A stretch of DNA of 64,000 nucleotides from Gemmatimonadales bacterium. GTDB taxonomy: Bacteria > Gemmatimonadota > Gemmatimonadetes > Gemmatimonadales > GWC2-71-9. The stretch is taken from positions 1,487-65,486 of the forward strand of contig JBOHSN010000001.1 of assembly GCA_050733215.1 (NCBI GenBank), read 5' to 3'. This document shows positions 2,475 to 50,267 of the stretch, piece after piece (the stretch's first letter is position 1; the number at the start of each line of letters is the position of its first letter). Position numbers and translations under genes: made by a program. The notes below the pieces were generated by a model, which worked only from the letters and a program-made list of their open reading frames with translations, ran no database searches and was not told the DNA's origin.

Positions 2475-4350
2475 GCTCAGGGCGCGCGCCGCGCCCGGCC
2501 GAACGGCCCGGGTGGCGCTGCTGCTGCTCCAGGCGGGCGCCGTGGCGGCGGTGCTCGCCGCCGTGCCGTTCCCGCTGTTCGATCTCGATCGGCACGCGGT
2601 CCCGAAGGAGCTCGCGCTGCACCTGGCCGGCGCCGGATCCGCGGCGCTCCTGGTATCGCGCGCGCGGCGACTCTCGCTGTCGCTCGCCGACGCGCTGCTC
2701 GCCGTCTTCCTGTTGCTGTGCATCGTCTCCGCCCTGTTCGCCACCAACCACTGGCTCGCCGTCCGTTCGCTGGGCCTCACCGTCTCCGGGGTGCTCGTCT
2801 TCTGGGCCGCGCGGGGGATCCGCTCGGCCGGGCTGGCGCGCCAGCTGCTTTTCACGCTGGCGGCGGGCGTCGTGCTCGCGGCCATGACCGCTCTGCTTCA
2901 GGCTTACGGCGTCGAGTCGCCGCTCTTCGCAGAGCGACGGGCGCCCGGCGGGGCCTTCGGAAACCGGAACTTCATGGCGCACTTCGTGGCGCTCGGCCTG
3001 CCGGTGCTGTTGCTCGCGACGCTCGAGTCCCGGAGGCGGCGGGAGGCGTGGCTCCCGGCCGCGGGGGCGATCGTGCTCGGTGCGGCGCTGGTGCTCTCCC
3101 GCTCGCGCGCCGCGTGGCTCGGCGCGATCGCCGCGCTCGCCATCGTCGCGGTCGAAGGGCTGTGGTTGGGATTTCTCTGGCGCGACGTGACCAGCCGCCG
3201 CCGGATGCTGCAGTTCGCGCTCGGGATCGGCGTGGGCGGGGTGCTCGCGCTCGTGCTGCCCAACACGCTCGAGTGGCGGTCCGACTCGCCCTACCTGGAC
3301 TCGCTCAAGGACGTGGCCAACTACCGGGATGGGAGCGGCAAGGGGCGGCTGGTGCAGTACGCGAACACCCTGCGGATGGCCGCCGCCCATCCCGTGCTCG
3401 GCGTGGGACCGGGCAACTGGGCGGTCGCCTACCCCCGCTACACCACGCCGGGCGACCCCGCGTTCGACGCGGATGACTTCATCCCCACGAACCCGTGGCC
3501 CAGCAGCGACTGGATCGCGTCGGTCGCGGAGCGCGGCACTCTGGCGACGCTCGCGCTGGCCGGCGCGGCGGCCGCGCTCGCGATCGGGGCGTGGAGACGC
3601 TGGCGCATGGCGCCCGAGACCACCGAGGGTACGGAGAGCCTCACGCTCATCCTCCTCCTCGCCACGACCGCGGTGGTCGGGAGCTTCGACGCGGTGCTGC
3701 TCCTTCCCGCGCCGACGTTCTTCGTGTGGGCCGGACTCGGGCTCCTCGCCCGACCGCCGAGGCGTCCCGTCCTCGAGCTCGACCTCAACGGGCAGCGCGC
3801 CCGCCGGCTTGCGGCCGCCGTGGTCACGGCGGGGCTCGTGTTCTCGGCGCGGAGCGCGAGCCAGCTCGGCTCGATGGTGGCGTACGGTGATCCGGGGCGG
3901 GTGGCCGCCATGGAGCGTGCCGCGGCCATCGACCCCGGTAACTACCGGATCAGGATGCTGCTCGGCTACGTGTGGCGGAACCGGGGGCGCTGCGATCTCG
4001 CGCGGCGCCACGCCGAGGGGGCGCGGCGGCTGTTCCCCCACCATCCGGCGCCGAAGCAGCTCCTTGCTGTCTGCAGAAGGGCGATAACCACAAAGAGAGG
4101 AAGAACACGAAGGGCGCTGCGCGAGTGCGGAGATCGGGTCTCGCCCAGCGGCCTTGGTGTCCTTCCTCTCTTTGTGGTTCAACCGCCTGAGGACCGGATC
4201 CAACCGAGGAGCTTGGCCCGCAGCATCGGAAGCGGCAGCGCGCCGTCCTCCAGCACCCGGTCGTGGAACTCCCGGATATCGAACCGCTCTCCCAGCCGGC
4301 GCTCGGCCTCGGTGCGGAGCGCTCGAATCTCGAGGTTGCCCAGCAGGTAG
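2449..4350 (+). CDS. O-antigen ligase (Wzy_C/RfaL-like) family membrane protein with C-terminal TPR-like region
   Basis: About 10 TM helices. It has the RSRAAWLG motif region and a periplasmic loop typical of O-antigen ligase-like proteins. ATG at 2449. The last ~90 codons read through the 4086..4179 hairpin and antisense to the DUF885 gene, so they are probably not native. Confidence 0.75.
   Translation: MAIASRATELRARAAPGRTARVALLLLQAGAVAAVLAAVPFPLFDLDRHAVPKELALHLAGAGSAALLVSRARRLSLSLADALLAVFLLLCIVSALFATNHWLAVRSLGLTVSGVLVFWAARGIRSAGLARQLLFTLAAGVVLAAMTALLQAYGVESPLFAERRAPGGAFGNRNFMAHFVALGLPVLLLATLESRRRREAWLPAAGAIVLGAALVLSRSRAAWLGAIAALAIVAVEGLWLGFLWRDVTSRRRMLQFALGIGVGGVLALVLPNTLEWRSDSPYLDSLKDVANYRDGSGKGRLVQYANTLRMAAAHPVLGVGPGNWAVAYPRYTTPGDPAFDADDFIPTNPWPSSDWIASVAERGTLATLALAGAAAALAIGAWRRWRMAPETTEGTESLTLILLLATTAVVGSFDAVLLLPAPTFFVWAGLGLLARPPRRPVLELDLNGQRARRLAAAVVTAGLVFSARSASQLGSMVAYGDPGRVAAMERAAAIDPGNYRIRMLLGYVWRNRGRCDLARRHAEGARRLFPHHPAPKQLLAVCRRAITTKRGRTRRALRECGDRVSPSGLGVLPLFVVQPPEDRIQPRSLARSIGSGSAPSSSTRSWNSRISNRSPSRRSASVRSARISRLPSR
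4086..4179. repeat. long imperfect hairpin with purine-rich arms (AACCACAAAGAGAGGAAGAACACGAAGG / CCTTGGTGTCCTTCCTCTCTTTGTGGTT)
   Basis: 28-nt arms at 4086..4113 and 4152..4179 pair at 26 of 28 positions. The 38-nt loop has an inner GCGAG/CTCGC pairing. The right arm ends in the DUF885 stop codon (4179..4181). Confidence 0.85.
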
Positions 4351-5924
4351 GACGATCCCTGCCCGGGCACCGAGATGTACCGATCGATCTCGCCCTCCAC
4401 GATCGTCGGCGCGATCACGGTGTGCGCGGCGAGAAACTCCGCGGCCTGCTCCCGGGTCCAGCCCAGCGTATGAATGCCCGCATCGAGCACCAGCCGCGCC
4501 GCGCGCCAGGCCTGGCTCGCCAGGAGTCCCATGCGCCCGATATCCGAGCTGAACACATCCATCTCGCCCGCCACCGTCTCGGAGTACAGCGCCCACCCCT
4601 CCACGTAGCCCGAGTTCGAGAAGTAGCGCGCCAGCCGGTGCGACGCCCCCCGCTCCTGCGCGATGGTGACCTGGAAGTGATGGCCGGGAACGGCCTCGTG
4701 GAATGCGGTGCTCTCCAGCTTGGCGCGGCTCTGCTTTTCGGGCGCCCAGGTGTTGATCCAGAAAATGCCGGGTCGTGACCCGTCCTCCGCGGCCTGGTTG
4801 TACGACGGGACCGCGCCGGTGCGCTGCCGGAACTCCGGATACGGCTCGATGATGACCTTGGCCTTCGGCAACAGCCCGAACCAGCGCGGGACTACGGCCT
4901 CCGCCCGCGCCACGGCGGCGGCGGACGAGTCGATGATTTCCTGCCGGGTGCGGAAGGTGAGCGCGGGCTCGGTCTTGAGGCGCTGGAGGATGGCCGGCAC
5001 GTCGCCGGTCCCGAACGCCCGCCGGCCGAGCTCGCTCATCCCCCGCTCGATGGCGGCGAGCTCGCGCCGGCCGCGCTCGAAGATCGAATCGGCGGGGAGG
5101 TCGAGCGTCGTGTAGCGGAGCACGGAGGCGCGATAGCACGCACTCCCGTCCGGGTTCGGGGACACCGCGATCGATGCGCGGGCCTGGCGCAGGTACTCCT
5201 TCGCGAGAAAGTCGCGATACCGGCGGACGGCCGGATTGATCCGGTCGCGCACGATGGCCACGAACGCGCGCCGGAACTCGGGCGTCGAATCTCGCAGGGC
5301 GGGTGAAGCGAAGGGAGAGGAGTCGGGCGGCGTGGCGAGCAGCCCGTCGAGCTGGCGGATGACGCCTTCGACCACTGGCCTCGGCGCCACGTACCCCCGC
5401 CGAAGTCCGGTCCGGAGATTCGCAACGTCGGTCTCGATATAGCGTGGCAACTGGCGCCAGCGCCGGAGCGCCTGCGCCCGGTAGGCGGCCGTGCCGACCG
5501 GCTGCGAGCGCGCGAGCGACGGGTAGCCCGTCTGCCAGCCGCCCGAGGTGCTCAGCTGCCAGAGCTCGTACCGGCACACCCGCTGGGCCACCCGCCCCTC
5601 GAGCTCGGCGCGCAGAATGCCGTAGGTCGCCCAGTCCGGTCCGCCGGCCAGCGCGGCTCCGTCGATCCGGCGCGCCCGGGCCAGCCATCCGTCCTCGCGC
5701 CGGCGCCAGCGCTCGAGCGCGGCGAGCGAATTGTCGCGGATCCTGTCATGACGGGCGCCCGGGATGCCGTGGTCGGTGAACTCCTCGGGGTTCGCGGCGA
5801 AGAAGGCATCCACGTACTCGGTCGCGAGCGCCGCGACGGCGGACTCCTGGGCCCGAGCCCGTGGCGCCGGAGCGCACGTCACGAGGCCCCCGACCAGACC
5901 AATGGCGATCCACCAGCGCATCAA
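4179..5924 (-). CDS. DUF885 family protein (secreted, putative metallopeptidase-like)
   Basis: 581 aa with a signal peptide (MMRWWIAIGLVGGLVTCAPAPRARAQ) and the HEAVPGHHFQ motif characteristic of DUF885. Confidence 0.9.
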   Translation of the reverse strand: MMRWWIAIGLVGGLVTCAPAPRARAQESAVAALATEYVDAFFAANPEEFTDHGIPGARHDRIRDNSLAALERWRRREDGWLARARRIDGAALAGGPDWATYGILRAELEGRVAQRVCRYELWQLSTSGGWQTGYPSLARSQPVGTAAYRAQALRRWRQLPRYIETDVANLRTGLRRGYVAPRPVVEGVIRQLDGLLATPPDSSPFASPALRDSTPEFRRAFVAIVRDRINPAVRRYRDFLAKEYLRQARASIAVSPNPDGSACYRASVLRYTTLDLPADSIFERGRRELAAIERGMSELGRRAFGTGDVPAILQRLKTEPALTFRTRQEIIDSSAAAVARAEAVVPRWFGLLPKAKVIIEPYPEFRQRTGAVPSYNQAAEDGSRPGIFWINTWAPEKQSRAKLESTAFHEAVPGHHFQVTIAQERGASHRLARYFSNSGYVEGWALYSETVAGEMDVFSSDIGRMGLLASQAWRAARLVLDAGIHTLGWTREQAAEFLAAHTVIAPTIVEGEIDRYISVPGQGSSYLLGNLEIRALRTEAERRLGERFDIREFHDRVLEDGALPLPMLRAKLLGWIRSSGG

Positions 5925-6033
5925 TCCCCCCTCGACGGTTCAGCTCTTAACGCTTCCCTACCCCGTCCCGTCCTACCGTCCGGTCGCGACCACCCGCGTA
6001 CCAACACCGACACCGATGCAAGGAGTAGCACTC

Positions 6034-6915
6034 ATGAGCACGCTCATCCGATGGCGCGCCGCGACAGCAAGCACCCTCCTGCTCGGCCTCGCGGCGTGCA
6101 GCGACGAGGGCGCCGGCCCGTCCGGCGGCGCGCTGACCCAGGCGCAGGCGGAGTTCGCGGCCGAGGCGGTCACCGACGACGCGGACGCGCAGGGGGACAT
6201 CCTGTCTTCGGAGACCGTGGGCGACGCGAGCTTCAGCGTCGCGGCGTTCGCGCCTTTCGGCGCGCAATGCACGCCGCGGCCCACCGCGAGCCCGGCGCCG
6301 ACCGACCAGGACGGCGACATCGTCCCCGACTCGGTGCGATTCACGTTCGATCCGCCCTGCGTGCTCTCGCTGCCACTCCGCACGATCACCCGCTCCGGCA
6401 TCATCGATGTGGTGGATCCCACGCCGACCGATCTCGACTGGGCCCGGCGGGTGCGCTTCGTGGACTTTCTGACCACGCGCGAGCGCCTGGTCAGCGGCGC
6501 CATCGTGTCCGCGCTCCGGAACGGCGTGCGCGAGATCAACGGCAATCCGGACGCGCTGCAGCACGATGTGACCGGTTTCGTCACCGTGTTCACGCACGCC
6601 AACGGCTCCGTCACCACGCACACGCGCACCTGGTCGTCCGACTTCACCGCGGATACGCCGGGGAGCATCGCACGGAATCAGGCGCTCCCCAGCGGCACCT
6701 GGACCATCGGCGGGACGTCGACCTGGGCGCGGGAGAACGCCGTCTGGTCGGCGTCGGTCACGACCGACCAGGCCCTGCATTACGACGCGGGGTGCACGGA
6801 GGCCCCGCGCTTCGACGCCGGGGTGCTCACGCTCGTAGTAACCCGGGGGGGCAACGCGTCCACCGTGACGATCGAGTATGCCGGCTGTGGGGAATACGTA
6901 GTGACGAGAAGCTAG
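6034..6915 (+). CDS. hypothetical lipoprotein
   Basis: In-frame ATG at 6034 preceded by AGGAG (6021..6025). N-terminus MSTLIRWRAATASTLLLGLAAC has a lipobox (LAAC). No recognisable domain. Confidence 0.75.
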   Translation: MSTLIRWRAATASTLLLGLAACSDEGAGPSGGALTQAQAEFAAEAVTDDADAQGDILSSETVGDASFSVAAFAPFGAQCTPRPTASPAPTDQDGDIVPDSVRFTFDPPCVLSLPLRTITRSGIIDVVDPTPTDLDWARRVRFVDFLTTRERLVSGAIVSALRNGVREINGNPDALQHDVTGFVTVFTHANGSVTTHTRTWSSDFTADTPGSIARNQALPSGTWTIGGTSTWARENAVWSASVTTDQALHYDAGCTEAPRFDAGVLTLVVTRGGNASTVTIEYAGCGEYVVTRS

Positions 6916-7040
6916 CTATCCGCTATCGGCTGTCCGCTATCCGCTCGCTCGGCAGCCGCTCGGTTCGCGCAGCGGAGCGACGCGTGCATGCAGTCGCGGA
7001 TAGCGGATAGCGGATAGCGGATAGCCGATAGCCGATAGCG
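6916..7040. repeat. hairpin with heptad-repeat arms (TATCCGC units versus GCGGATA/GCCGATA units)
   Basis: Left arm has 4 heptads (6917..6944) and right arm 6 heptads (6996..7037). It sits exactly between two convergent stop codons (TAG 6913..6915 and CTA 7047..7049). Confidence 0.9.
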
Positions 7041-7046
7041 GAGAAG

Positions 7047-8630: not shown

Positions 8631-8677
8631 CCGCCACCGCGCGAATCAAGTCTGGGGACCGGCAGCGACAACAGCGG

Positions 8678-8804
8678 TTCACACGGAGGCGCGGAGGACG
8701 CGGAGAACTGCCTTGGGTTGTGGTCTCACGCTCGGGCATCCGGATTATCGGTCATGAGACCACTTCAAGTGCAGTTCTCCGCGTCCTCCGCGCCTCCGTG
8801 TGAA
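8678..8804. repeat. nested long hairpin with a 34-bp perfect stem built of CGCGGAGG-like 8-mers
   Basis: TTCACACGGAGGCGCGGAGGACGCGGAGAACTGC (8678..8711) is the exact reverse complement of 8771..8804. There is an inner 9-bp stem, GTGGTCTCA (8720..8728) / TGAGACCAC (8755..8763). It lies between the egtA-like stop (8809) and the TPR gene start. Confidence 0.9.
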
Positions 8805-8808
8805 CACC

Positions 8809-17196: not shown

Positions 17197-17298
17197 GGCT
17201 ATCCGCTATCCGCTATCCGCCCGCTCCGCCACCGCTCGTCGGGTCGCGCGGGGCACCAAGCCGCCGCGGAGAGAGCGGATAGCGGATAGCGGATAGCC
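17197..17298. repeat. hairpin with a perfect 24-bp stem of CGCTATC heptads
   Basis: GGCTATCCGCTATCCGCTATCCGC (17197..17220) is the exact reverse complement of 17275..17298, with a 54-nt loop. It fills the whole gap between the DUF1015 stop (17298..17300) and the serA ATG (17196..17194). Confidence 0.95.
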
Positions 17299-27513: not shown

Positions 27514-28710
27514 ATGGCCCTCCGCCACGGCGTCACCGCAGCGCTCGCGGTCTGCACCCTGCTCGCGCCGCGGCTCCGGGCCCAGGACACCACGGACGTC
27601 GATCTGACCGATCCGCTGGCGGAAGACACGACCTGGACCAATACCGACCTGCCGTGGTCGCTGAGCTATTTCCCCTACCTCACGGGCCTATCAAACGACG
27701 GCCCGCTGATCGCGGGACGGGTGCGCTACTGGAAGCCGGCGCCGTACGAGGACCGTGTCACCGCGAAGGCCGCGCTCGAGCTCAACGCTGGCATCGGCTT
27801 CCGCGGTAGCCGGTTCGTCACCGCCACGGCGACGGTGCCGCGGCTGGGGCATGGCTGGCGTCTCTTCGCGCTTGGCGCCGCGGTACGCGAGGCGCGGTTC
27901 GGCTTCTACGGCCTGGGCAACGAAACCATCAAGGACGAGAGCCTGACGCTGCCGGACAACAAGCTCTATTACCGGGTCCGCCGTCGCACGTACCGCGTCA
28001 GTCTGGACGTCACCCGCCAACTCGCCGGCCCGTTGCACGCGGCGCTCCTCGGAGAGCTCGTATCGGCCAACTACACGGCGCCGGACGACCAGCCCTCGCT
28101 GTTCGACCAGACCTTCGGGCCCGAGCTCGACAACCGGGACGCGTCGCTCCGTGCGGCGCTCGTGTTCGACACGCGCGACAACGAGTACAACACCCTCAAC
28201 GGCCTGTTGCTCGAGGCCGGCGCCCAGGTGGCCACCGGCGGCGGCAACTACGAGCGGGTCTACGGCATCGCGCGCGGCTGGCTCACGCCGCGGGAGGGCA
28301 CGACTCTCGCCGCGCGCATCGCGGGCTCGCAGCTCTACGGCGCGCCGACCCTCGATGCCCGGTTCATCATCCCCGGCTGGGAACGCCCGGTGCTGGTGCT
28401 CGGCGGCAACTACTCACATCGGGGCCTGGACCTGCCGCGGTTCGCGGGCCAGGGCGTGCTGTTCGGCAACTTCGAGGTGCGGCAAGAGGTCTTCGGCTTC
28501 GGCGACCTCGGGGCGATCGGTCTCGTCGGTTTCGTCGACGCCGGGCGGGTCTTCGAGGAGGACAAGTTCCGGCTCACCTTCAACGATCTCAAGGTGGGCG
28601 GCGGCGGCGGCATCGCGATCAGGATCCTGCGGTCCACGATCTTTACCTTCACCGTGGGCCGCGGCCCCGACGGGACCAACATCGATCTCAACGCGGGGTG
28701 GTTCTTCTGA
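27514..28710 (+). CDS. outer-membrane beta-barrel protein (Omp85/surface antigen D15-like barrel)
   Basis: 398 aa with a signal peptide (AVCTLLAPRLRAQ), alternating beta-strand pattern, and the C-terminal DLNAGWFF terminal-aromatic signature of OMPs. Confidence 0.8.
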   Translation: MALRHGVTAALAVCTLLAPRLRAQDTTDVDLTDPLAEDTTWTNTDLPWSLSYFPYLTGLSNDGPLIAGRVRYWKPAPYEDRVTAKAALELNAGIGFRGSRFVTATATVPRLGHGWRLFALGAAVREARFGFYGLGNETIKDESLTLPDNKLYYRVRRRTYRVSLDVTRQLAGPLHAALLGELVSANYTAPDDQPSLFDQTFGPELDNRDASLRAALVFDTRDNEYNTLNGLLLEAGAQVATGGGNYERVYGIARGWLTPREGTTLAARIAGSQLYGAPTLDARFIIPGWERPVLVLGGNYSHRGLDLPRFAGQGVLFGNFEVRQEVFGFGDLGAIGLVGFVDAGRVFEEDKFRLTFNDLKVGGGGGIAIRILRSTIFTFTVGRGPDGTNIDLNAGWFF

Positions 28711-28899
28711 GTCAGCGGTGAGCAGTAAGCAGTGAGCAGTGAGCAGTGAGCAGTGAGCAGTGAGCAGTGAGCAGTGAGCAGTGAGCAGTGAGCAGTGAGC
28801 AGTGAGCAGTGAGCAGTGAGCAGTGAGCAGTAAGCAGGGGGCTCCGATGTACACCGGAGCCTCCTGCTCACCGCTCACCGCTCACCGCTCACCGCTCAC
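28711..28899. repeat. hairpin with strongly expanded heptad arm (18 GTGAGCA-type units versus 5 CGCTCAC units)
   Basis: Left arm 28711..28836 has 18 heptads, 14 of them consecutive perfect GTGAGCA (28732..28829). The loop 28837..28864 is itself a GGCTCCG/CGGAGCC hairpin. Right arm 28865..28899 has 5 heptads. It starts 1 nt after the OMP stop and contains the stop of the thioredoxin-like gene. Confidence 0.95.
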
Positions 28900-29419
28900 C
28901 GTCCCCTCGTCCAGCCGTCGCCAGCACCTCGCGGAGCGTCGTCTCGCCCCTGTCCCGGGCGTACCACTTCCGGATCTCCGGATAGATCTCGGCTTTCGCG
29001 CGACCCCGCCCGAGTTGCTCGATCACCCAAAGCTGCAGGACGCGCGGCCGCGGACCCCAGCGGCCGATCTCCTGGAACTGCTCGTTCAGCGCGATGACGA
29101 TCGGAATCGAGCGCGAGCCGTTGGTCAGATAGCGGTCCATCAGCTCGGGATGCTCGTCGCGCCGGATGAGGCGGAGCTCGACCCCGGGCGCCAGCTCGGC
29201 CAGGCGCGCCAGAACCGGCAGGGTGTTCGACGCATCGCCGCACCAGTCTTCGGCAATGGCCAGGAGCCGGACCCGACCGTGATCCGACGCCGCGACGGCC
29301 CACTCGGGCACCTTCGCCAGGCGGTAGAGCCCTTCCCACAGCCCGCGGTGCTTGAGGTCGCTCGCGGCGACGAAGTCGGCGTAGGGAAGCGCGGCGTTCC
29401 AGAGAGCGGAGAAGTCCAT
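28889..29419 (-). CDS. thioredoxin-fold family protein
   Basis: 176 aa. LLAIAEDWCGDASNTLPVLARLAE and IPIVIALNEQFQEIGRWGPRP are typical of this thioredoxin-like family. The last codons lie in the repeat arm. Confidence 0.8.
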   Translation of the reverse strand: MDFSALWNAALPYADFVAASDLKHRGLWEGLYRLAKVPEWAVAASDHGRVRLLAIAEDWCGDASNTLPVLARLAELAPGVELRLIRRDEHPELMDRYLTNGSRSIPIVIALNEQFQEIGRWGPRPRVLQLWVIEQLGRGRAKAEIYPEIRKWYARDRGETTLREVLATAGRGDGER

Positions 29420-29500: not shown

Positions 29501-30121
29501 ATGTCCCCATCCCCCCGCCGCGACGGCGAGGCCACCCGCCAGCGGCTGCTGCGCGCCGCCCTCGAGTTGTTCACGAGCAACGGGTTTCGCGCCACCACGA
29601 CGCCCGAGATCGCGGAGCGCGCGGGCGTGGCGGAGGGAACCATCTACCGGCATTTCTCCGGCAAGGAGCACCTGCTCAACGAGGTGTTTCGCGCGGCGCA
29701 CCGGTGGGCGTCCGGACTGGTGGCGGAGACCGATGGTCCGCACCCCCCCCAGGAGCGGCTCCAGCGCATCGGCCGGCGGCTGCTCGAGGGCGCGGAGCGA
29801 GACCCGGCGGCGGCGCGAATGGTCCTCCTCACGCGGGACGACCCGCATCTCGACGAGCGGAGCCGCGACGCCGCCCGGGAGTTTCGCGCGTCGCTCCAGC
29901 AGGTGATCGCGGCGGGCAAGTCCGACGGCGTGGTGCGGTCCGGGCCGGCAGAGCTCTGGGCGGCGGTGTGGCTCTCGGTGGTGGCGTTCGCGGCGGAGCG
30001 CGTGGCCGGGCGCGAGTGGACGGCGGAGCAGCCGCAGGCCGGGCAGGTGCTCGAGGCGGCGTGGGATGCGATTCGGGCGGGAGAGGGAGGGAGAGGGCGG
30101 GAGAAGGAGGGAGGGGAATAA
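29501..30121 (+). CDS. TetR/AcrR family transcriptional regulator
   Basis: 206 aa. The HTH reads RLLRAALELFTSNGFRATTTPEIAERAGVAEGTIYRHF. The C-terminal tail GEGGRGREKEGGE is encoded by the decamer repeat. Confidence 0.9.
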   Translation: MSPSPRRDGEATRQRLLRAALELFTSNGFRATTTPEIAERAGVAEGTIYRHFSGKEHLLNEVFRAAHRWASGLVAETDGPHPPQERLQRIGRRLLEGAERDPAAARMVLLTRDDPHLDERSRDAAREFRASLQQVIAAGKSDGVVRSGPAELWAAVWLSVVAFAAERVAGREWTAEQPQAGQVLEAAWDAIRAGEGGRGREKEGGE

Positions 30122-30176
30122 CTATGCTGCCCTACCTCTCCCGCCGTCTCCCGCCCCCTCCCGCCCTCGTCTCCCC
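30075..30176. repeat. hairpin with decamer-repeat arms (GGCGGGAGAG-type versus CTCTCCCGCC-type)
   Basis: Left arm 30075..30116, loop AATAACTATGCTGCC, right arm 30132..30176. Both convergent stop codons (30119..30121 and 30132..30134) sit at the loop edges, so both arms are translated as protein tails. Confidence 0.9.
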
Positions 30177-30947
30177 CGCAAACGCAGTGAGCTCTCTCGG
30201 ATGTCGCGGCGGCCGGTTCCAGGTCACGCGCCGCGCCCGGCCCGGCCCCGCGGGGCGCACGATCAGCTCGTCGCCCGCAAAGTAGCCCACCGAGTCAGGG
30301 CCCCAGCGCGCCGGGTCGCGCCCCTGATCGGCGATCGCGACCGGAGTGCTGCTGTCCGCCGCGGCGCAGAGCGCCTGCTCGCAGGCGAACACCCGGGCGA
30401 AGGGCGGCTCGCCCACGAACACCCCGAGCGCCGAATCAACCCGCTGCCACTCTTCGGGGGGAACGGCGCGGGCCGGTTCGTCGGTGGGGGGCGCCGGGAT
30501 CGCGTACGCGAATGGGCCGGCGCTCGCGTAGAGCACGCGCCCGTCGCGCCCCCAGCCGATTGCCTGGACCTCCGCTTCGGCCGGCAGCTCCATCCGGCGT
30601 TCCGCTCCCGTCAGCAGGTTGATCACCCAGGGCGTGCGGGCGAGCGTATCGTCGATCCCGCGCCCGCGCAGAAACGCCACCATGAACCCGTTTGGCGACA
30701 GTGCCGGCCGGGCCTCGCGGACCGGCGTGAACGTGATCTGAAAGACCGGGCCGCCGTCGGCCCGCACCCCGAAGAGGTCGCCCACACCGGCGGGATCATC
30801 CGCGATGAAGACGGCGTAGGCGTCGCGCCCTACCACGGCGTGGCGGCGGAGCGGTGAGACGGTTCCGCCGCAGGCTATGGCCACGGTGAGAGGTAAGACG
30901 TGAGCGGTGAGCGGGACCCAACGTGTCCAGAGCGTCTTACCTCTCAC
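30132..30947 (-). CDS. lipoprotein, TolB/PD40-like beta-propeller fragment family
   Basis: 271 aa. The signal peptide and lipobox read MRGKTLWTRWVPLTAHVLPLTVAIACGG. ALSPNGFMVAFLRG resembles PD40 repeats. GTG start at 30947. Confidence 0.7.
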   Translation of the reverse strand: MRGKTLWTRWVPLTAHVLPLTVAIACGGTVSPLRRHAVVGRDAYAVFIADDPAGVGDLFGVRADGGPVFQITFTPVREARPALSPNGFMVAFLRGRGIDDTLARTPWVINLLTGAERRMELPAEAEVQAIGWGRDGRVLYASAGPFAYAIPAPPTDEPARAVPPEEWQRVDSALGVFVGEPPFARVFACEQALCAAADSSTPVAIADQGRDPARWGPDSVGYFAGDELIVRPAGPGRARRVTWNRPPRHPRELTAFAGETRAGGGGRRRER

Positions 30948-30961
30948 CTCTCACCTCTGAC
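30886..30961. repeat. hairpin of GTGAGAG/GTAAGAC/GTGAGCG heptads with a 14-bp perfect stem
   Basis: GTGAGAGGTAAGAC (30886..30899) is the exact reverse complement of 30934..30947. The stem contains the M1 peptidase stop (30937..30939) and the GTG start (30945..30947) of the lipoprotein gene. Confidence 0.9.
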
Positions 30962-32541
30962 CTGAGAAGCCACCAGCCGGCCGGGTCCACCTCCAGCTTC
31001 GAGGGCGGGCGGGAGAACCCGCGGAGCGTGCGGCGCGTGCTCCGTCCGCTCACGTCCAGGGGGAAGTCCTTGCCGTCGATCCGGATCACGAGCCCCGGCA
31101 GGCGGTAGGTGCCCCAGGCCGGCGGCTGCGTCTGGCGGACGTCGATGTCGATCCGGTTGCCCTGATGACGCCACCGCACGTCGAGGATCGGGTATCCGGG
31201 CTGCGTCAGCGCCTGCCGGAAGTACCAGTCGAGATCCCGGCCGGCGGCCTTGGCGGCGGCCTTGGCGAAGTCGGACGAGACGGCGGTGCCGTGCCGATAC
31301 ACGCGATAGTACTCGCGAAGCGCGCCGCCAAACGCCGAGTCGCCGATCATGCCGCGCAGCTGGTGCAGGATCCAGGCGCCCTTCTCATACGCGTTGTCGT
31401 TGAGCAGAGAATCGGGATCGGCGACCCCGGGGTCGATCACGGGCCGCTCGACATCACGCGACGCGAAGTACTGCTCGGCCCCCTGGCGCATGGTCGCCGA
31501 ACGGGCCGGCAGGCCGCCGGTTTCCTCCGCCCACATGGCCGCGAGGTAGGTGGCGAAGCCCTCGGACAGCCAGAGGTGGTGCCAGTCGTCGGGGGTCACC
31601 GCGTCGCCGAACCACTGGTGTGCCGTCTCGTGCGCGACGGTGCGCTCCTCCAGCCGGCCGGCGTGGAGCACGCTGTCGTTGTAGAAGATCGCGGTGGCGT
31701 TCTCCATGCCGCTGAACCGCGTCGCAGCCTGGACATGGGCCAACGAGCCGTAGGGGAACGGGCCGACGAGCCGCGTGAAGTAGTCCACCATGGCTCCGGC
31801 GCGCCGGAACGGCCCCGCGGCCGCCCTCGCTGAATCGGCCGGGTCGGTCCAGAGCGACACCGGCACGCAGCGCGCGGGACAGCCGGCCGCGCCCAGCCGC
31901 GTGACGGCGAACCTGCCGATGCCGATCACGATCGAGTAGGTGGGAATCGGCTCGTTCAGGCGATAGTGCCAGAGCCGGTGGTCGTACGGCAGCGTGTCGA
32001 TCGTTTCGAGCGTGCCGTTGGCGATCACCTGCACGCCCGCGGGCACCTGCACGTGGAAGGCGACCGTCGCCTTGTCGGAGGGATGGTCCTGCACCGGCAG
32101 CCAACCGTGCGCGTGGTCGGGCCAGTTGTCGGCGAACACGCGAAGCCCGGCCGGACCCGGCCGGAACACCAGCCCGTCGCGCACTTCACCGCGATACCGG
32201 ACCCGGGTGGAGAGCGTGTCGCCCGCGCGCGCCTCGTGCGGTACGGCGAGCTGTTCGCCGCGGCGGAACCACATTGTGCGAACCAGGCGGGTGTTCTCGC
32301 GGCCGTTCACCAGCACGCGGATGACGCGGAGCGCGGAGTCGAGCCGCAGCTCCACCGGCTCGCTGGAGGCGAGCCGCCAACTCACGTCGGTCTGGCCCAG
32401 CACGTGGCGGCCGGTGTCGCCGAGCACCAGGCTCACGTCGTAGTGCGTGACGTCGTGCGGAAGACGCGTGGTGTCCGGCCGCACCGCGAGCGGCGAGACT
32501 GCCGCGGCGGTCTGAAGCAGAAGCCCGGGGATGGTGAGCAT
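30937..32541 (-). CDS. M1 family aminopeptidase
   Basis: 534 aa with GMENATAIF, HETAHQWFGD (HExxH) and WLSEGFATY. Confidence 0.92.
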   Translation of the reverse strand: MLTIPGLLLQTAAAVSPLAVRPDTTRLPHDVTHYDVSLVLGDTGRHVLGQTDVSWRLASSEPVELRLDSALRVIRVLVNGRENTRLVRTMWFRRGEQLAVPHEARAGDTLSTRVRYRGEVRDGLVFRPGPAGLRVFADNWPDHAHGWLPVQDHPSDKATVAFHVQVPAGVQVIANGTLETIDTLPYDHRLWHYRLNEPIPTYSIVIGIGRFAVTRLGAAGCPARCVPVSLWTDPADSARAAAGPFRRAGAMVDYFTRLVGPFPYGSLAHVQAATRFSGMENATAIFYNDSVLHAGRLEERTVAHETAHQWFGDAVTPDDWHHLWLSEGFATYLAAMWAEETGGLPARSATMRQGAEQYFASRDVERPVIDPGVADPDSLLNDNAYEKGAWILHQLRGMIGDSAFGGALREYYRVYRHGTAVSSDFAKAAAKAAGRDLDWYFRQALTQPGYPILDVRWRHQGNRIDIDVRQTQPPAWGTYRLPGLVIRIDGKDFPLDVSGRSTRRTLRGFSRPPSKLEVDPAGWWLLRSEVRGER

Positions 32542-32550
32542 TGTTTGAAA

Positions 32551-32676
32551 GTAAGCAGTGAGCGGTAAGCAGTGAGCGGTGAGCGGTGAGCGGTAAGGGG
32601 AACGCGCTGAGACCGGCGCGCCCTAACGAAGCCCTCGCACCGCTCACCGCTCACTGCTTACCGCTCACCCCTCACT
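32551..32676. repeat. hairpin with GTRAGCR heptad arms (7 versus 5 units)
   Basis: Left arm 32551..32599 and right arm 32641..32675. The DLH stop (32672..32674) lies in the last heptad. The M1 ATG is 9 nt from the left arm. Confidence 0.92.
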
Positions 32677-33460: not shown

Positions 33461-34425
33461 ATCTCGACCCGGCCCTCCATCAAGAGCGGCACGGCGGCGC
33501 GCCGCCGCTTCGCGTCCCAGCCGAGGTCCGCGGGCGACGGCACTCCGCCGGTGAGCCGGGTGACGCGTCCGCCTTCGACGACGTTCAAGCTCGAGTCGGT
33601 CCACGAGGTGACGAGGAGGCGTCCGTTGCCGATCGGCTCGACACCATCGTGCTGTCCCTTACCCTTGGCCAGGGGCTGCAACGCGCTGTCGCCGGGGGCC
33701 CACCGCACCATCTGCTGACCGAAGAACGGCACTACCACGAAGGAGCGCCCGGCCGAGTCCCACGTAATGCCGTTCGGGGCGGCGAGGCTGGTGTCCTGGA
33801 GCGCGACCGTGGCCTTGCGGTCGGCACCGATGCGGTAGATGCGGTCCGGACCTGGGTGCCCCATCCCGGTCTTGGGATCGACGCCGAGTCCGGTGTCGGT
33901 GAGGTAGAGGGCGCCGTCGGGGCCCACCGCCACGTCGTTGAGGAACTTGGCGCCGCGCACGTTGACGGCCGCGACCGGCGCGCCGGTCCTGCGGCTGAAC
34001 CCGCGCACCGCGTCGATGTCGGCCACCCAGAGCGTGTCGCCGGCGATCGCCATGCCCTTGGGCGCGTTGAGCACCGCACCGCCGCGTCCCCCCGCGATGA
34101 ACTTCACCGAATCAGGGCTGCCATCGCCCTTGTACCGGCCGATCACGCCGTTGTTGTCCTTGCCGAGCGGCGAGACCTCGCCCTCGCCGAAGCTGGCGAC
34201 GTACCACACGTCGAGCTCCGGATCGTACCGGACCGCCTCGGCCGCGTTCACCTTGATCTCGCCGACCTTCTTCGGCGCCGCGGCGGTCACGGCGGGATCA
34301 CCGGCCGCCGTGTCGGCGTGGCCGGCCTGGTCGGGCGGAGGCCGATCGCAACCTATTGCGAGTGTAAGTGTGAGTGCGAGTGTGAGTGGCAGGGCCATCG
34401 GGGCTGGGCGGGGTCGGTATGTCAT
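33445..34425 (-). CDS. beta-propeller lipoprotein (SMP-30/gluconolactonase/LRE-like or NHL-like)
   Basis: ATG 34425 gives MTYRPRPAPMALPLTLALTLTLAIGC (lipobox). Repeats include NAPKGMAIAGDTLWVADI and LNDVAVGPDGALYLTDTG. Confidence 0.78.
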   Translation of the reverse strand: MTYRPRPAPMALPLTLALTLTLAIGCDRPPPDQAGHADTAAGDPAVTAAAPKKVGEIKVNAAEAVRYDPELDVWYVASFGEGEVSPLGKDNNGVIGRYKGDGSPDSVKFIAGGRGGAVLNAPKGMAIAGDTLWVADIDAVRGFSRRTGAPVAAVNVRGAKFLNDVAVGPDGALYLTDTGLGVDPKTGMGHPGPDRIYRIGADRKATVALQDTSLAAPNGITWDSAGRSFVVVPFFGQQMVRWAPGDSALQPLAKGKGQHDGVEPIGNGRLLVTSWTDSSLNVVEGGRVTRLTGGVPSPADLGWDAKRRRAAVPLLMEGRVEIWEVP

Positions 34426-34487
34426 ACATCGATCTCCGGTTCGTTGTGATACGCACTCGCACGCACACTCACACTCGCACTCACTCC
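34357..34487. repeat. hairpin with hexamer-repeat arms (TGYGAG versus CRCACT units), 19-bp perfect core
   Basis: GTGAGTGCGAGTGTGAGTG (34370..34388) is the exact reverse complement of 34466..34484. The 77-nt loop holds the lipoprotein ATG. The right arm holds the ParB-like stop (34481..34483). The left arm encodes LTLALTLTL of the signal peptide. Confidence 0.9.
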
Positions 34488-48036: not shown

Positions 48037-48038
48037 GA

Positions 48039-48119
48039 GTGAGCGGTGAGCGGTAAGCGGTGAGCAGTGAGCGGGTTCTCGGACGCGGTCCCGCTTACCG
48101 CTTACCGCTCACCGCTCAC
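48039..48119. repeat. hairpin with GTRAGCR heptad arms (5 versus 4 units)
   Basis: Left arm 48039..48073 and right arm 48092..48119. It lies 2 nt from the pdxH ATG (48036) and 3 nt from the M24 stop (48123). Confidence 0.92.
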
Positions 48120-48122
48120 TCC

Positions 48123-49513: not shown

Positions 49514-49630
49514 GGCGGGAGAGGGAGGGAGAGGGCGGGAGAGGGCGGGAGTGGGCGCGCGAGGGCGGGAGTGGCCGTTCAGCCCGCTCCCGCCTGGTCC
49601 CGCCCGTTCCCACCCACTCCCGCCTGCTCC
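49514..49630. repeat. hairpin with decamer-repeat arms (GGCGGGAGAG-type, 6 versus ~5 units)
   Basis: Left arm 49514..49573 and right arm 49583..49630. The SufU-like stop (49579..49581) is in the loop, and the SufU tail AAEEQAGVGGNGRDQAGAG is encoded by the right arm. The M24 ATG is 12 nt from the left arm. Confidence 0.9.
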
Positions 49631-50144: not shown

Positions 50145-50267
50145 GCTAATAGCTATCCGCTATCCGCTATCCGCTATCCGCTATCCGCTGGTGCTTGCCC
50201 GGCATCGCGATGCCAGCAACGCCTCGGCGGATAGCGGATAGCGGATAGCCGACGACCGATAGCCGAC
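50145..50267. repeat. hairpin with TATCCGC/GCGGATA heptad arms (5 versus 3 plus degenerate units)
   Basis: Left arm 50154..50188 has 5 perfect TATCCGC units. The loop contains the 14-bp palindrome GGCATCGCGATGCC. The right arm 50227..50267 has 3 GCGGATA units plus a degenerate GCCGACGACCGATAGCCGAC stretch. It lies between the rhodanese stop (50270) and the SufU-like ATG (50136). Confidence 0.92.

Follow-up and report, generated by a model that had tools for sequence, protein, structure and literature searches.

A heptad-repeat hairpin between an M1 peptidase gene and a lipoprotein gene encodes a signal-peptide core in Gemmatimonadales

Anatomy of the M1 peptidase–lipoprotein junction

We analysed a 64,000-nucleotide (nt) stretch of contig JBOHSN010000001.1 from a Gemmatimonadales bacterium (GCA_050733215.1), referred to here as the window, in which a hairpin of inverted heptanucleotide (heptad) repeats lies across the boundary of two overlapping minus-strand genes and is translated on both sides of it. 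The upstream gene (30937..32541, −; 534 amino acids (aa); Pfam Peptidase_M1) encodes an M1-family peptidase whose C-terminal end reads ...SEVRGER (AGWWLLRSEVRGER). The downstream gene (30132..30947, −; 271 aa) encodes a TolB-like putative lipoprotein from a large Gemmatimonadales family (PF26549 Tricorn_N / PD40; 391 matches). In relatives the two belong to a conserved gene order: ParB_N-like, SGL, DLH, M1, TolB-like, TetR (opposite strand), Thioredoxin_9 and Omp85 (opposite strand). The M1 TAA stop (30939-30937, −) overlaps the downstream open reading frame (ORF) by 11 nt (GTGAGAGGTAA), and the GTG at 30947-30945 (−) is the sole canonical start compatible with a signal peptide downstream of an in-frame TGA (30953-30951, −), which lies two codons 5′ of it.

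On the messenger RNA (mRNA), the perfect stem measures 16 base pairs (bp) and encloses a 32-nt loop (30933-30948 / 30885-30900). Its 5′ arm (30948-30933, −; GGUGAGAGGUAAGACG) holds both the lipoprotein GTG and the M1 TAA, and its 3′ arm (30900-30885, −; CGUCUUACCUCUCACC) encodes V17-L18-P19-L20-T21 of the signal peptide. An earlier reading made from the letters alone (the sequence-only reading) had assigned the M1 stop UAA and the GUG start of the next gene to the 5′ arm and residues ~17-21 of the signal peptide to the 3′ arm, which agrees with what we find; the perfect stem it described is also present, at 16 bp and not the 14 bp claimed. The loop of this perfect register (30901..30932, −; 32 nt) encodes residues 6-16, LWTRWVPLTAH, and its 3′ half consists of two CGCTCAC heptads that pair in an alternative, minimum-free-energy (MFE) register.

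Both arms are parts of longer, imperfect arrays. The 5′ array (30935..30963, −) runs GTCAGAG GTGAGAG GTGAGAG GTAAGAC and encodes the M1 tail S-E-V-R-G-E-R, so that the last ~7 residues of the peptidase come from the hairpin. The 3′ array (30884..30914, −) runs CGCTCAC CGCTCAC GTCTTAC CTCTCAC, is open in 3/3 frames and is read as PLTAHVLPLT, with the CGCTCAC pair in its single Arg-free frame. Six nt 5′ of the GTG lies a Shine–Dalgarno (SD)-like GAGG (30957-30954, −; within GAGGUGA), which is base-paired in the hairpin. The GTGAGAG flavour at 30948-30961 amounts to a tandem GAGGUGA, an extended SD sequence. The partner arm UCACCUCU (30885-30893) resembles the anti-SD sequence of the 16S rRNA 3′ tail, which would make the stem an SD:anti-SD mimic.

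A repeat-encoded lipoprotein signal peptide

The signal-peptide coding sequence (30873..30947, −; 25 residues, MRGKTLWTRWVPLTAHVLPLTVAIA) is followed directly by the codon for the lipobox cysteine, Cys26 (TGC, 30872-30870). The segment HVLPLT-VA-I-A-C26 fits the PROSITE PS51257-type lipobox pattern {DERK}(6)-[LIVMFWSTAG](2)-[LIVMFYSTAGCQ]-[AGS]-C, the cysteine falls within positions 15-35 of the accompanying rule, and the Lys or Arg that this rule places in the first seven residues is represented by R2 and K4. Cleavage by signal peptidase II is thus predicted from sequence. Thirty-nine aligned homologues share the conserved motif ...A-C-(G/S)-G-(T)-x-S-P-L-R, with the signal peptide directly before the Cys, and a table of 77 orthologous loci, described below, agrees. 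Because the Cys and CGG(T)xSPLR are conserved family-wide, translation must start upstream of Cys26.

In every frame the TCAC arm is open and the GTGA arm contains a GTG, so that a long ORF arises here by construction, and 8 of the 120 best database homologues are called from a downstream GTG that begins 'VVGRD'. An annotation artefact, in which the true start is V22 or the VVGRD GTG, the hairpin is purely intergenic and the signal peptide is an accidental open frame, would account for both facts, yet we give it almost no credence. The Cys and the 14 residues from it to VVGRD are conserved as protein, also in repeat-free species with classic signal peptides, and on that ground the explanation fails. 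In addition, GTG 30947 is the sole ATG, GTG or TTG codon to be found upstream of V22, initiation at V22 itself would reduce the signal sequence to MAIAC, and the real frame is uncharged and hydrophobic, unlike the alternatives, and follows the lipobox rule. Automated gene calls at three orthologous loci (L003:3905-4001, L088:2393-2501 and L089:2393-2501) begin at the VVGRD GTG and miss the signal peptide. Gene callers thus misplace starts at these junctions, and lipoproteins are likely to be under-annotated in these genomes.

The same build recurs in a second gene of this operon. At the ParB_N-like/SGL junction, a hexamer-array hairpin (34370-34484, −) with a 19-bp perfect stem carries the ParB_N-like TGA stop (34483-34481) in its 5′ arm and the ATG (34425) of the SGL gene, a match to Pfam SGL, in its loop; its 3′ arm (34388-34370) encodes LPLTLALTLTL of the signal peptide MTYRPRPAPMALPLTLALTLTLAIGC. 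Loci L003 (350-560; PLALTLALGC) and L088 (460-680; PLALTLTLAC) have this arrangement as well, with a conserved GGAGATCGA-ATG in the loop, and L001 has a more decayed version, bringing the genomes in which it was seen to four. Both lipoprotein genes of the operon have absorbed a 3′ arm, whereas the hairpin before M1 is still non-coding: this copy, of GTGAGCG flavour and with a perfect stem of 31 bp (32551..32669, −), occupies the space that separates the DLH stop (32674-32672) from the M1 ATG (32541). The window holds four credible lipoprotein N termini, and two of the four are repeat-encoded.

Orthologous junctions

A scan of one genome per species yielded 80 further Gemmatimonadales loci, and the junction table covers 77. 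A hydrophobic core (h-region) read from TCAC-type heptads was found at 23 of these 77 loci, spread over at least four clades with cores such as LLTAHCS, LFTVHC, LLTSHLL and LVTGYW. The heptad flavours are lineage-specific and give different peptides: GTGAACG/A is read as PFTVYRSPFT and LFTVHCLLFT, GTGAGAA as LLTSHLLLLTAC, GTGAGAG as LLTSYLLPLTSYL and GTGACCG/A as LVTGYWLLLTSC. Perfect stems were 10-23 bp long at the repeat-type loci, compared with mostly 9 bp or less at ordinary junctions. The L001 junction has a 23-bp perfect stem of GTGAGCA x3 / TGCTCAC x3, where the M1 TGA overlaps the GTG (GTGA) and the protein starts MSRHGILTILLTAHCSLLAAC. At L003, which has a GTGAGCA/TGCTCAC hairpin and where the gene caller took the downstream GTG, the full ORF from the GTGA overlap reads MSRWRWSAALLTAHCSLLSSC. 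About a third of the 120 best database homologues likewise have repeat-type N termini, for example SPLTLVLVPLTLVLVPLTLSLLSC. A pure LLTAHCS-repeat peptide searched against a large database returned only spurious ORFs of 48-74 aa over non-coding arrays.

In a neighbour-joining tree of the mature proteins, repeat-type signal peptides occur in at least four clades, one of which, of ~20 species, is almost wholly repeat-type, and the deep branches all carry ordinary Ala/Leu signal peptides. The repeat-encoded state is therefore derived, the hairpin arm having replaced the core of an existing signal peptide. The replaced cores resemble ordinary ones: the lipobox rule was passed by 18/23 repeat-type and 46/54 ordinary sequences, and the mean hydrophobicity of the 12 residues before the Cys was 1.72 versus 1.81. 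The translated frame is under selection. In repeat-type loci, charged or stop residues per 12 aa before the Cys numbered 0.09 in the real frame versus 1.17 and 1.00 in the alternative frames (Wilcoxon p = 8e-5, optimistic given the kinship of the loci). A by-eye tally, suggestive only, has coding arms favouring Arg-free flavours and non-coding copies in the same genomes often being of the Arg-containing GCG/ACG kind. One relative differs at this junction: at L088:2340-2500 (GCA_973787265.1) there is no M1 gene and the TolB-like gene follows DLH directly. The h-region LLTAHVLLLT is still encoded by CTCAC units there, but in place of the upstream arm stands a different, G-rich hairpin whose loop contains the GTG start.

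These comparisons bear on the proposal of the sequence-only reading that the hydrophobic core derives from a non-coding repeat exapted into an export signal. The repeat origin is borne out by the h-regions of the 23 loci, by the depletion of charge in the real frame and by the presence of the same heptads in non-coding hairpins of the window. The gain of an export signal is not, since the protein was already a lipoprotein and an existing h-region was replaced. The orthologue N termini show no independent signal peptide downstream of the repeat.

Placed between the start and Cys26 and read as the h-region, the seven-base units follow the logic of the Opa leaders (PMC3960869), and their number varies between relatives. 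A change of one heptad in either direction would leave no in-frame start in the window, because GTG 30954 reads into the TAA. The junction might accordingly be thought a contingency locus, at which slipped-strand mispairing of the heptads switches the lipoprotein ON and OFF as in the Neisseria opa CTCTT repeats, but we consider this very improbable. The arrays are short and imperfect, with 2-4 units per flavour and 4 units in the 3′ array of the window, 23/23 repeat-type loci are in frame, the hosts are soil and environmental Gemmatimonadales, and the gene encodes a housekeeping-looking TolB-like protein. A metagenome scan for close relatives with heptad copy-number or frame variants recovered no population variants and re-found only the P0002 contig.

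The 'VVGRD' gene calls were considered as phase-OFF alleles and rejected. Checked at the DNA level, each of the seemingly truncated genes at L003, L088 and L089 proved to have an unbroken upstream ORF that encodes a proper signal peptide (calls P0019 and P0026 were left out of this check).

A family of boundary hairpins

The junction hairpin is one of many. We searched the 64-kb window (70% GC) for perfect stems of at least 12 bp with loops of up to 100 nt, using block shuffles as control, and obtained 13 clusters compared with 1-2 in the shuffles. The heptad motif GTGAGNGGTGAG, with up to 1 mismatch, occurs 37 times against an expected 1.55. By junction type, 8 clusters are co-directional, 3-4 convergent and 0 divergent. 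The GTGAGNG/CNCTCAC heptads are not alone: GCTATCC/GGATAGC heptads form hairpins at 6915-7042, 17197-17298 and 50152-50249, GGGAGGGAGA-type decamers form them at 30075-30168 and 49514-49630, and the array at the SGL junction (34370-34484) is built of GAGTGN/NCACTC hexamers. Searches of the literature for the heptads, for Gemmatimonadetes repeats and for the exact heptad strings found no description of these elements, and the family appears undescribed.

Where the downstream gene is cytoplasmic, the hairpin ends exactly at its start codon. The hairpin at 17197-17298 begins at the DUF1015 stop (17298) and abuts the ATG (17196) of a 2-hydroxyacid dehydrogenase gene; the one at 48037-48121 extends from the M24 peptidase stop (48123) to the ATG (48036) of a pyridoxamine-phosphate oxidase gene; and the copy between DLH and M1 (32551-32669) is a third case. 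Across the hairpins at 17197-17298, 48037-48121, 32551-32669 and 50152-50249, 0-10 nt are spare between the stop and the next ATG. Such a fit puts the downstream ribosome-binding site (RBS) within the 3′ arm and brings the stop and the start side by side where the stem begins and ends.

Heptad arithmetic, which we verified directly, gives the two arms different coding properties. As 7 is coprime to 3, every frame of (GTGANNN)n contains both a TGA and a GTG, and (NNNTCAC)n has no stop in any frame and a single 7-residue period in all of them. This period is rich in Leu, Thr, Ala, His and Ser: TGCTCAC is read as CSLLTAH, CTCTCAC as LSPLTSH, TGTTCAC as CSLFTVH and TTCTCAC as FSLLTSH. The idea that GTGs in three frames confer robustness to heptad slippage was rejected here: only the last one or two GTGs escape the stops of the arm, and at the M1/lipoprotein locus it fails because GTG 30954 reads into the TAA.

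The order of the arms is fixed. In the window and ~85 loci, GTGA comes first and TCAC second in 31/31 adjacent array pairs, with 0 reversed. A purine-rich, SD-like arm also comes first in the decamer (GGGAGGGAGA) hairpins and in the hairpin at 8677-8805; in the 3 copies of the GCTATCC family, purines and pyrimidines are the other way round, and just as fixed. Flavours are partly specific to a junction and inherited. Five loci (L031, L032, L037, L040 and L041) have GTGAGAA at the M1/lipoprotein junction, and the DLH/M1 junction of L031 and L041 has GTGAACG. The hairpins are thus long-lived residents of orthologous sites, not repeatedly re-seeded ones. The arms co-vary in a single comparison of close relatives: the window has GTAAGAC/GTCTTAC where L085, with a mature protein 90% identical, has GTGAGAG/CTCTTGC, and the two G.U wobbles in the latter leave pairing possible only on the mRNA strand.

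Fixed polarity in 31/31 pairs, the persistence of genome- and junction-specific flavours at orthologous sites and the very unequal arm lengths of some copies (18 versus 5 units at 28710-28901) would also suit an element that acts as DNA. It might form a cruciform, bind a protein, or be a recombinase or transposase target or footprint, and the arm order would then come from its origin in such machinery, or from being recognised by it, and not from a role in RNA or translation. We rate this as improbable, given that the sole close-relative comparison keeps pairing by G.U wobbles, workable only in sense-strand RNA, and that the hairpins were found only in transcribed junctions containing 3′ ends. 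No associated transposase was seen in the window, although no systematic search was made for one.

The same properties admit a broader interpretation, in which inverted-heptad hairpins constitute a self-expanding boundary-module system and a recurrent natural source of signal peptides from non-coding repeats. The first arm would supply stops, GTG starts and SD-like GGUGA/GAGGUGA in three frames; the second would be open in all frames, hydrophobic and anti-SD-like. Such an arm order would let hairpins sit on, bridge or invade gene boundaries harmlessly, the upstream stop and downstream start brought together at the stem base could permit termination-reinitiation across a structured spacer, and export-signal cores would be repeatedly generated or replaced across Gemmatimonadales. 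In this full form we hold the proposal to be unlikely; if true, signal peptides arising from non-coding repeats would be recurrent and no one-off accident.

Folding of the junction and proposed translational coupling

The junction RNA is predicted to fold strongly. A 106-nt segment reached −51 kcal/mol (z = −3.85; 0/200 shuffles folded as well). Within the 86-nt hairpin, the SD-like GAGG and the GTG had a probability of being unpaired of at most 0.001, and both were paired in either register: the perfect one, whose stem by itself gives −28.1 kcal/mol, and the MFE one (−43 kcal/mol), which is shifted by one heptad and additionally recruits the two CGCTCAC units. The start codon is therefore sequestered in silico, as had been proposed from the sequence.

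A stem that buries the SD-like motif and the start and also holds the M1 stop suggests that translation of the lipoprotein is coupled to that of M1. Models of coupling by RNA unfolding or by reinitiation are characterised by short overlaps and by an RBS hidden in structure to which the upstream ORF extends (PMC12548453). Both are present here: the ORFs are co-directional and overlap, and the downstream RBS lies in a structure into which the upstream ORF runs. The stop/start overlap is −11 nt in the window and −4 (NTGA; GTGA/ATGA) in L001, L003 and most orthologues, repeat-free ones included. In keeping with coupling, a scan of the M1/lipoprotein junction found no sigma70-type promoter or canonical terminator.

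In our judgement the following account is probable. An intercistronic hairpin spread into both genes, replaced the core of the signal peptide and may have placed translation of the lipoprotein under coupling to M1. The element is one copy of a Gemmatimonadales-wide intercistronic and intergenic family of the form 5′-(GTGANNN)n - loop - (NNNTCAC)n-3′, whose heptad arrays may expand until they meet a constraint. Expansion would halt exactly at the start codons of cytoplasmic genes, and at the other end it would lengthen upstream proteins by a few residues (M1 and Thioredoxin_9 both end in ...GER*). Here the 5′ arm supplies the last ~7 residues and stop of M1 together with the SD-like GAGGUGA and the lipoprotein GTG, and the 3′ arm has taken the place of the hydrophobic core in a lipoprotein signal peptide that already existed. 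A signal peptide may tolerate such invasion, since hydrophobicity and the absence of charge are all that an h-region requires and the peptide would be removed by cleavage at the lipobox Cys. Translation of the lipoprotein would then depend mainly on ribosomes that open the stem as they complete M1, through RNA unfolding, termination-reinitiation or both.

Several observations weigh against this account or limit it. An 11-nt overlap couples less efficiently than one of −4 (PMC12548453). Burial of the start is not conserved, the start codon being in the loop in several clades and in the SGL case, so that sequestration cannot be the general reason for the persistence of the arrangement; the trait common to all cases is a 3′ arm that codes for the h-region. 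Repeat-free high-GC junctions also fold strongly, and the comparison of sense with antisense stability did not discriminate, the sense strand being more stable at repeat and non-repeat junctions alike, which is a compositional effect. Gene starts in the other loci are calls from ORF logic, and the orthologous loci are phylogenetically non-independent, so that p-values overstate significance.

The distribution of the family raises the question of whether its primary function has to do with the lipoprotein at all. Members also occur at convergent gene ends without a downstream start (28710-28901, 6915-7042 and 30075-30168), fill stop-to-start gaps exactly elsewhere and are absent from divergent junctions; this, with the lack of conserved start burial, is what one would expect of a REP-like RNA element selected for a role apart from lipoprotein translation, such as protection of the 3′ end of the upstream cistron, an RNase processing site or partial U-tract-independent termination, the overlap with start and signal peptide being a neutral by-product of array expansion. 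Such a role is compatible with the data and is the main alternative for the primary function of the hairpin, although we incline against it. It concerns that primary function and not the repeat-encoded signal peptide, and it can stand beside the account of hairpin spread and core replacement given above. No U-tract terminator or terminator-like site was found at 30500-31400, where the 3′ arm is followed by GUGGCCAUAGCC. Moreover, the downstream RBS is always inside the stem of exact-fit or overlapping hairpins, so that some effect on translation is hard to avoid.

Relation to known repeat systems

The opa genes of Neisseria offer a close parallel; Stern et al. reportedly linked their CTCTT repeats to the hydrophobic core of the signal sequence in 1986. 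These pentamers are coding repeats in the leader-peptide region (PMC3960869). As in opa, tandem units of a length not divisible by three are placed between the start codon and the mature protein (heptads 30884-30914, GTG 30947, Cys codon 30872), are translated as a hydrophobic part of the signal sequence and give the same peptide in any frame. The opa arrays are long, perfect and direct and bring about high-frequency frameshift phase variation. The heptad arrays, by contrast, consist of few and imperfect units, make up one side of a hairpin-forming inverted pair, come from a genome-wide family of non-coding elements and are in frame at every locus examined.

Other systems share single traits. 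Like Rickettsia palindromic elements (RPEs) and other intragenic MITE/ERIC/BOX insertions (PMC10969869), the elements are a normally non-coding palindromic family that occurs in frame within genes and adds peptide sequence. RPEs, however, are discrete mobile units of ~100-150 bp within gene bodies; the heptad element is a variable-length array at a gene boundary, has no fixed unit and inherits a junction-specific flavour at orthologous sites, and only one of its arms is translated, as a substitute for a signal-peptide h-region that would later be cleaved off. The REP/BIME elements of enterobacteria and pseudomonads (PMC2817692) are likewise abundant GC-rich hairpins at 3′ ends and between cistrons, are absent from divergent promoter regions and have family-specific conserved sequence and polarity. 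They differ in being single imperfect palindromes with a conserved GTAG (GT(A/G)G) head recognised by RAYT transposases, whereas the arms in the window are heptad, hexamer or decamer arrays of variable copy number, with GTGA/TCAC, GCTATCC or GGGAGGGAGA cores, in hairpins that often reach up to, or run across, stop and start codons.

That heptameric repeats are abundant has been noted before (PMC4692102). Cyanobacterial STRR and the TAACTGA repeats of Beggiatoaceae (PMC4679880) also have 7-nt units, are abundant and mostly intergenic and are suspected of post-transcriptional roles, but they are direct and rarely inverted, whereas the Gemmatimonadales arrays are inverted pairs with long stems, fixed arm order and one coding arm. 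Coupled gene pairs (PMC12548453) share the co-directional ORFs with overlapping stop and start and the downstream RBS trapped in a structure entered by the upstream ORF; here, by contrast, the structure is a repeat-family hairpin, the other arm of which is coding sequence of the downstream gene and precedes the lipobox Cys codon by 13-28 nt, and coupling is our reading of this layout. The elements can be seen as a variation on known themes: repeat-encoded leaders of the Opa type, palindromes that are translated as in RPEs, hairpins between cistrons that recall REP, and coupling mediated by RNA structure.

The junction is a clear case from nature of a non-coding repeat that supplies a working part of a protein, here the hydrophobic core of its export signal, and this repeat-encoded core is maintained in at least four clades and in two gene families. 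It bears on the permissiveness of signal peptides and on the rise of new coding sequence from repeats. The regularities of the family (units coprime to codon length, fixed arm order and exact stop-to-start fit) lead to testable predictions on coupling and operon architecture in Gemmatimonadales, members of a poorly studied phylum.

Further hairpins in the window

Hairpins at gene ends other than the M1/lipoprotein junction also contribute protein tails. The array at 28710-28901, between the convergent Omp85-like and Thioredoxin_9 genes, is asymmetric, with 18 AGTGAGC and 5 GCTCACC copies, and the Thioredoxin_9 C terminus ...GDGER* and its stop are read from it. At 30075-30168, inverted decamers (GGGAGGGAGA / CCTCTCCCGC) extend across the convergent 3′ ends of the TolB-like and TetR genes and encode both C-terminal tails, ...GGGGRRRER* and ...GREKEGGE*. 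The second decamer hairpin (49514-49630) sits between the NifU-like and M24 peptidase genes.

An Rfam scan of the window returned no model matching the hairpins; its sole match was a TPP riboswitch (RF00059; 39005-39104, −; 60.5 bits). The longest perfect stem in the window (8677-8805; 35 bp with a 59-nt loop) is non-heptad, contains GGAGG twice and lies between two co-directional minus-strand genes. A further 18-bp perfect stem at 4086-4179 is unusually AT-rich (AACCACAAAGAGAGGAAG) and ends exactly at the stop of the minus-strand gene 4179..5939.

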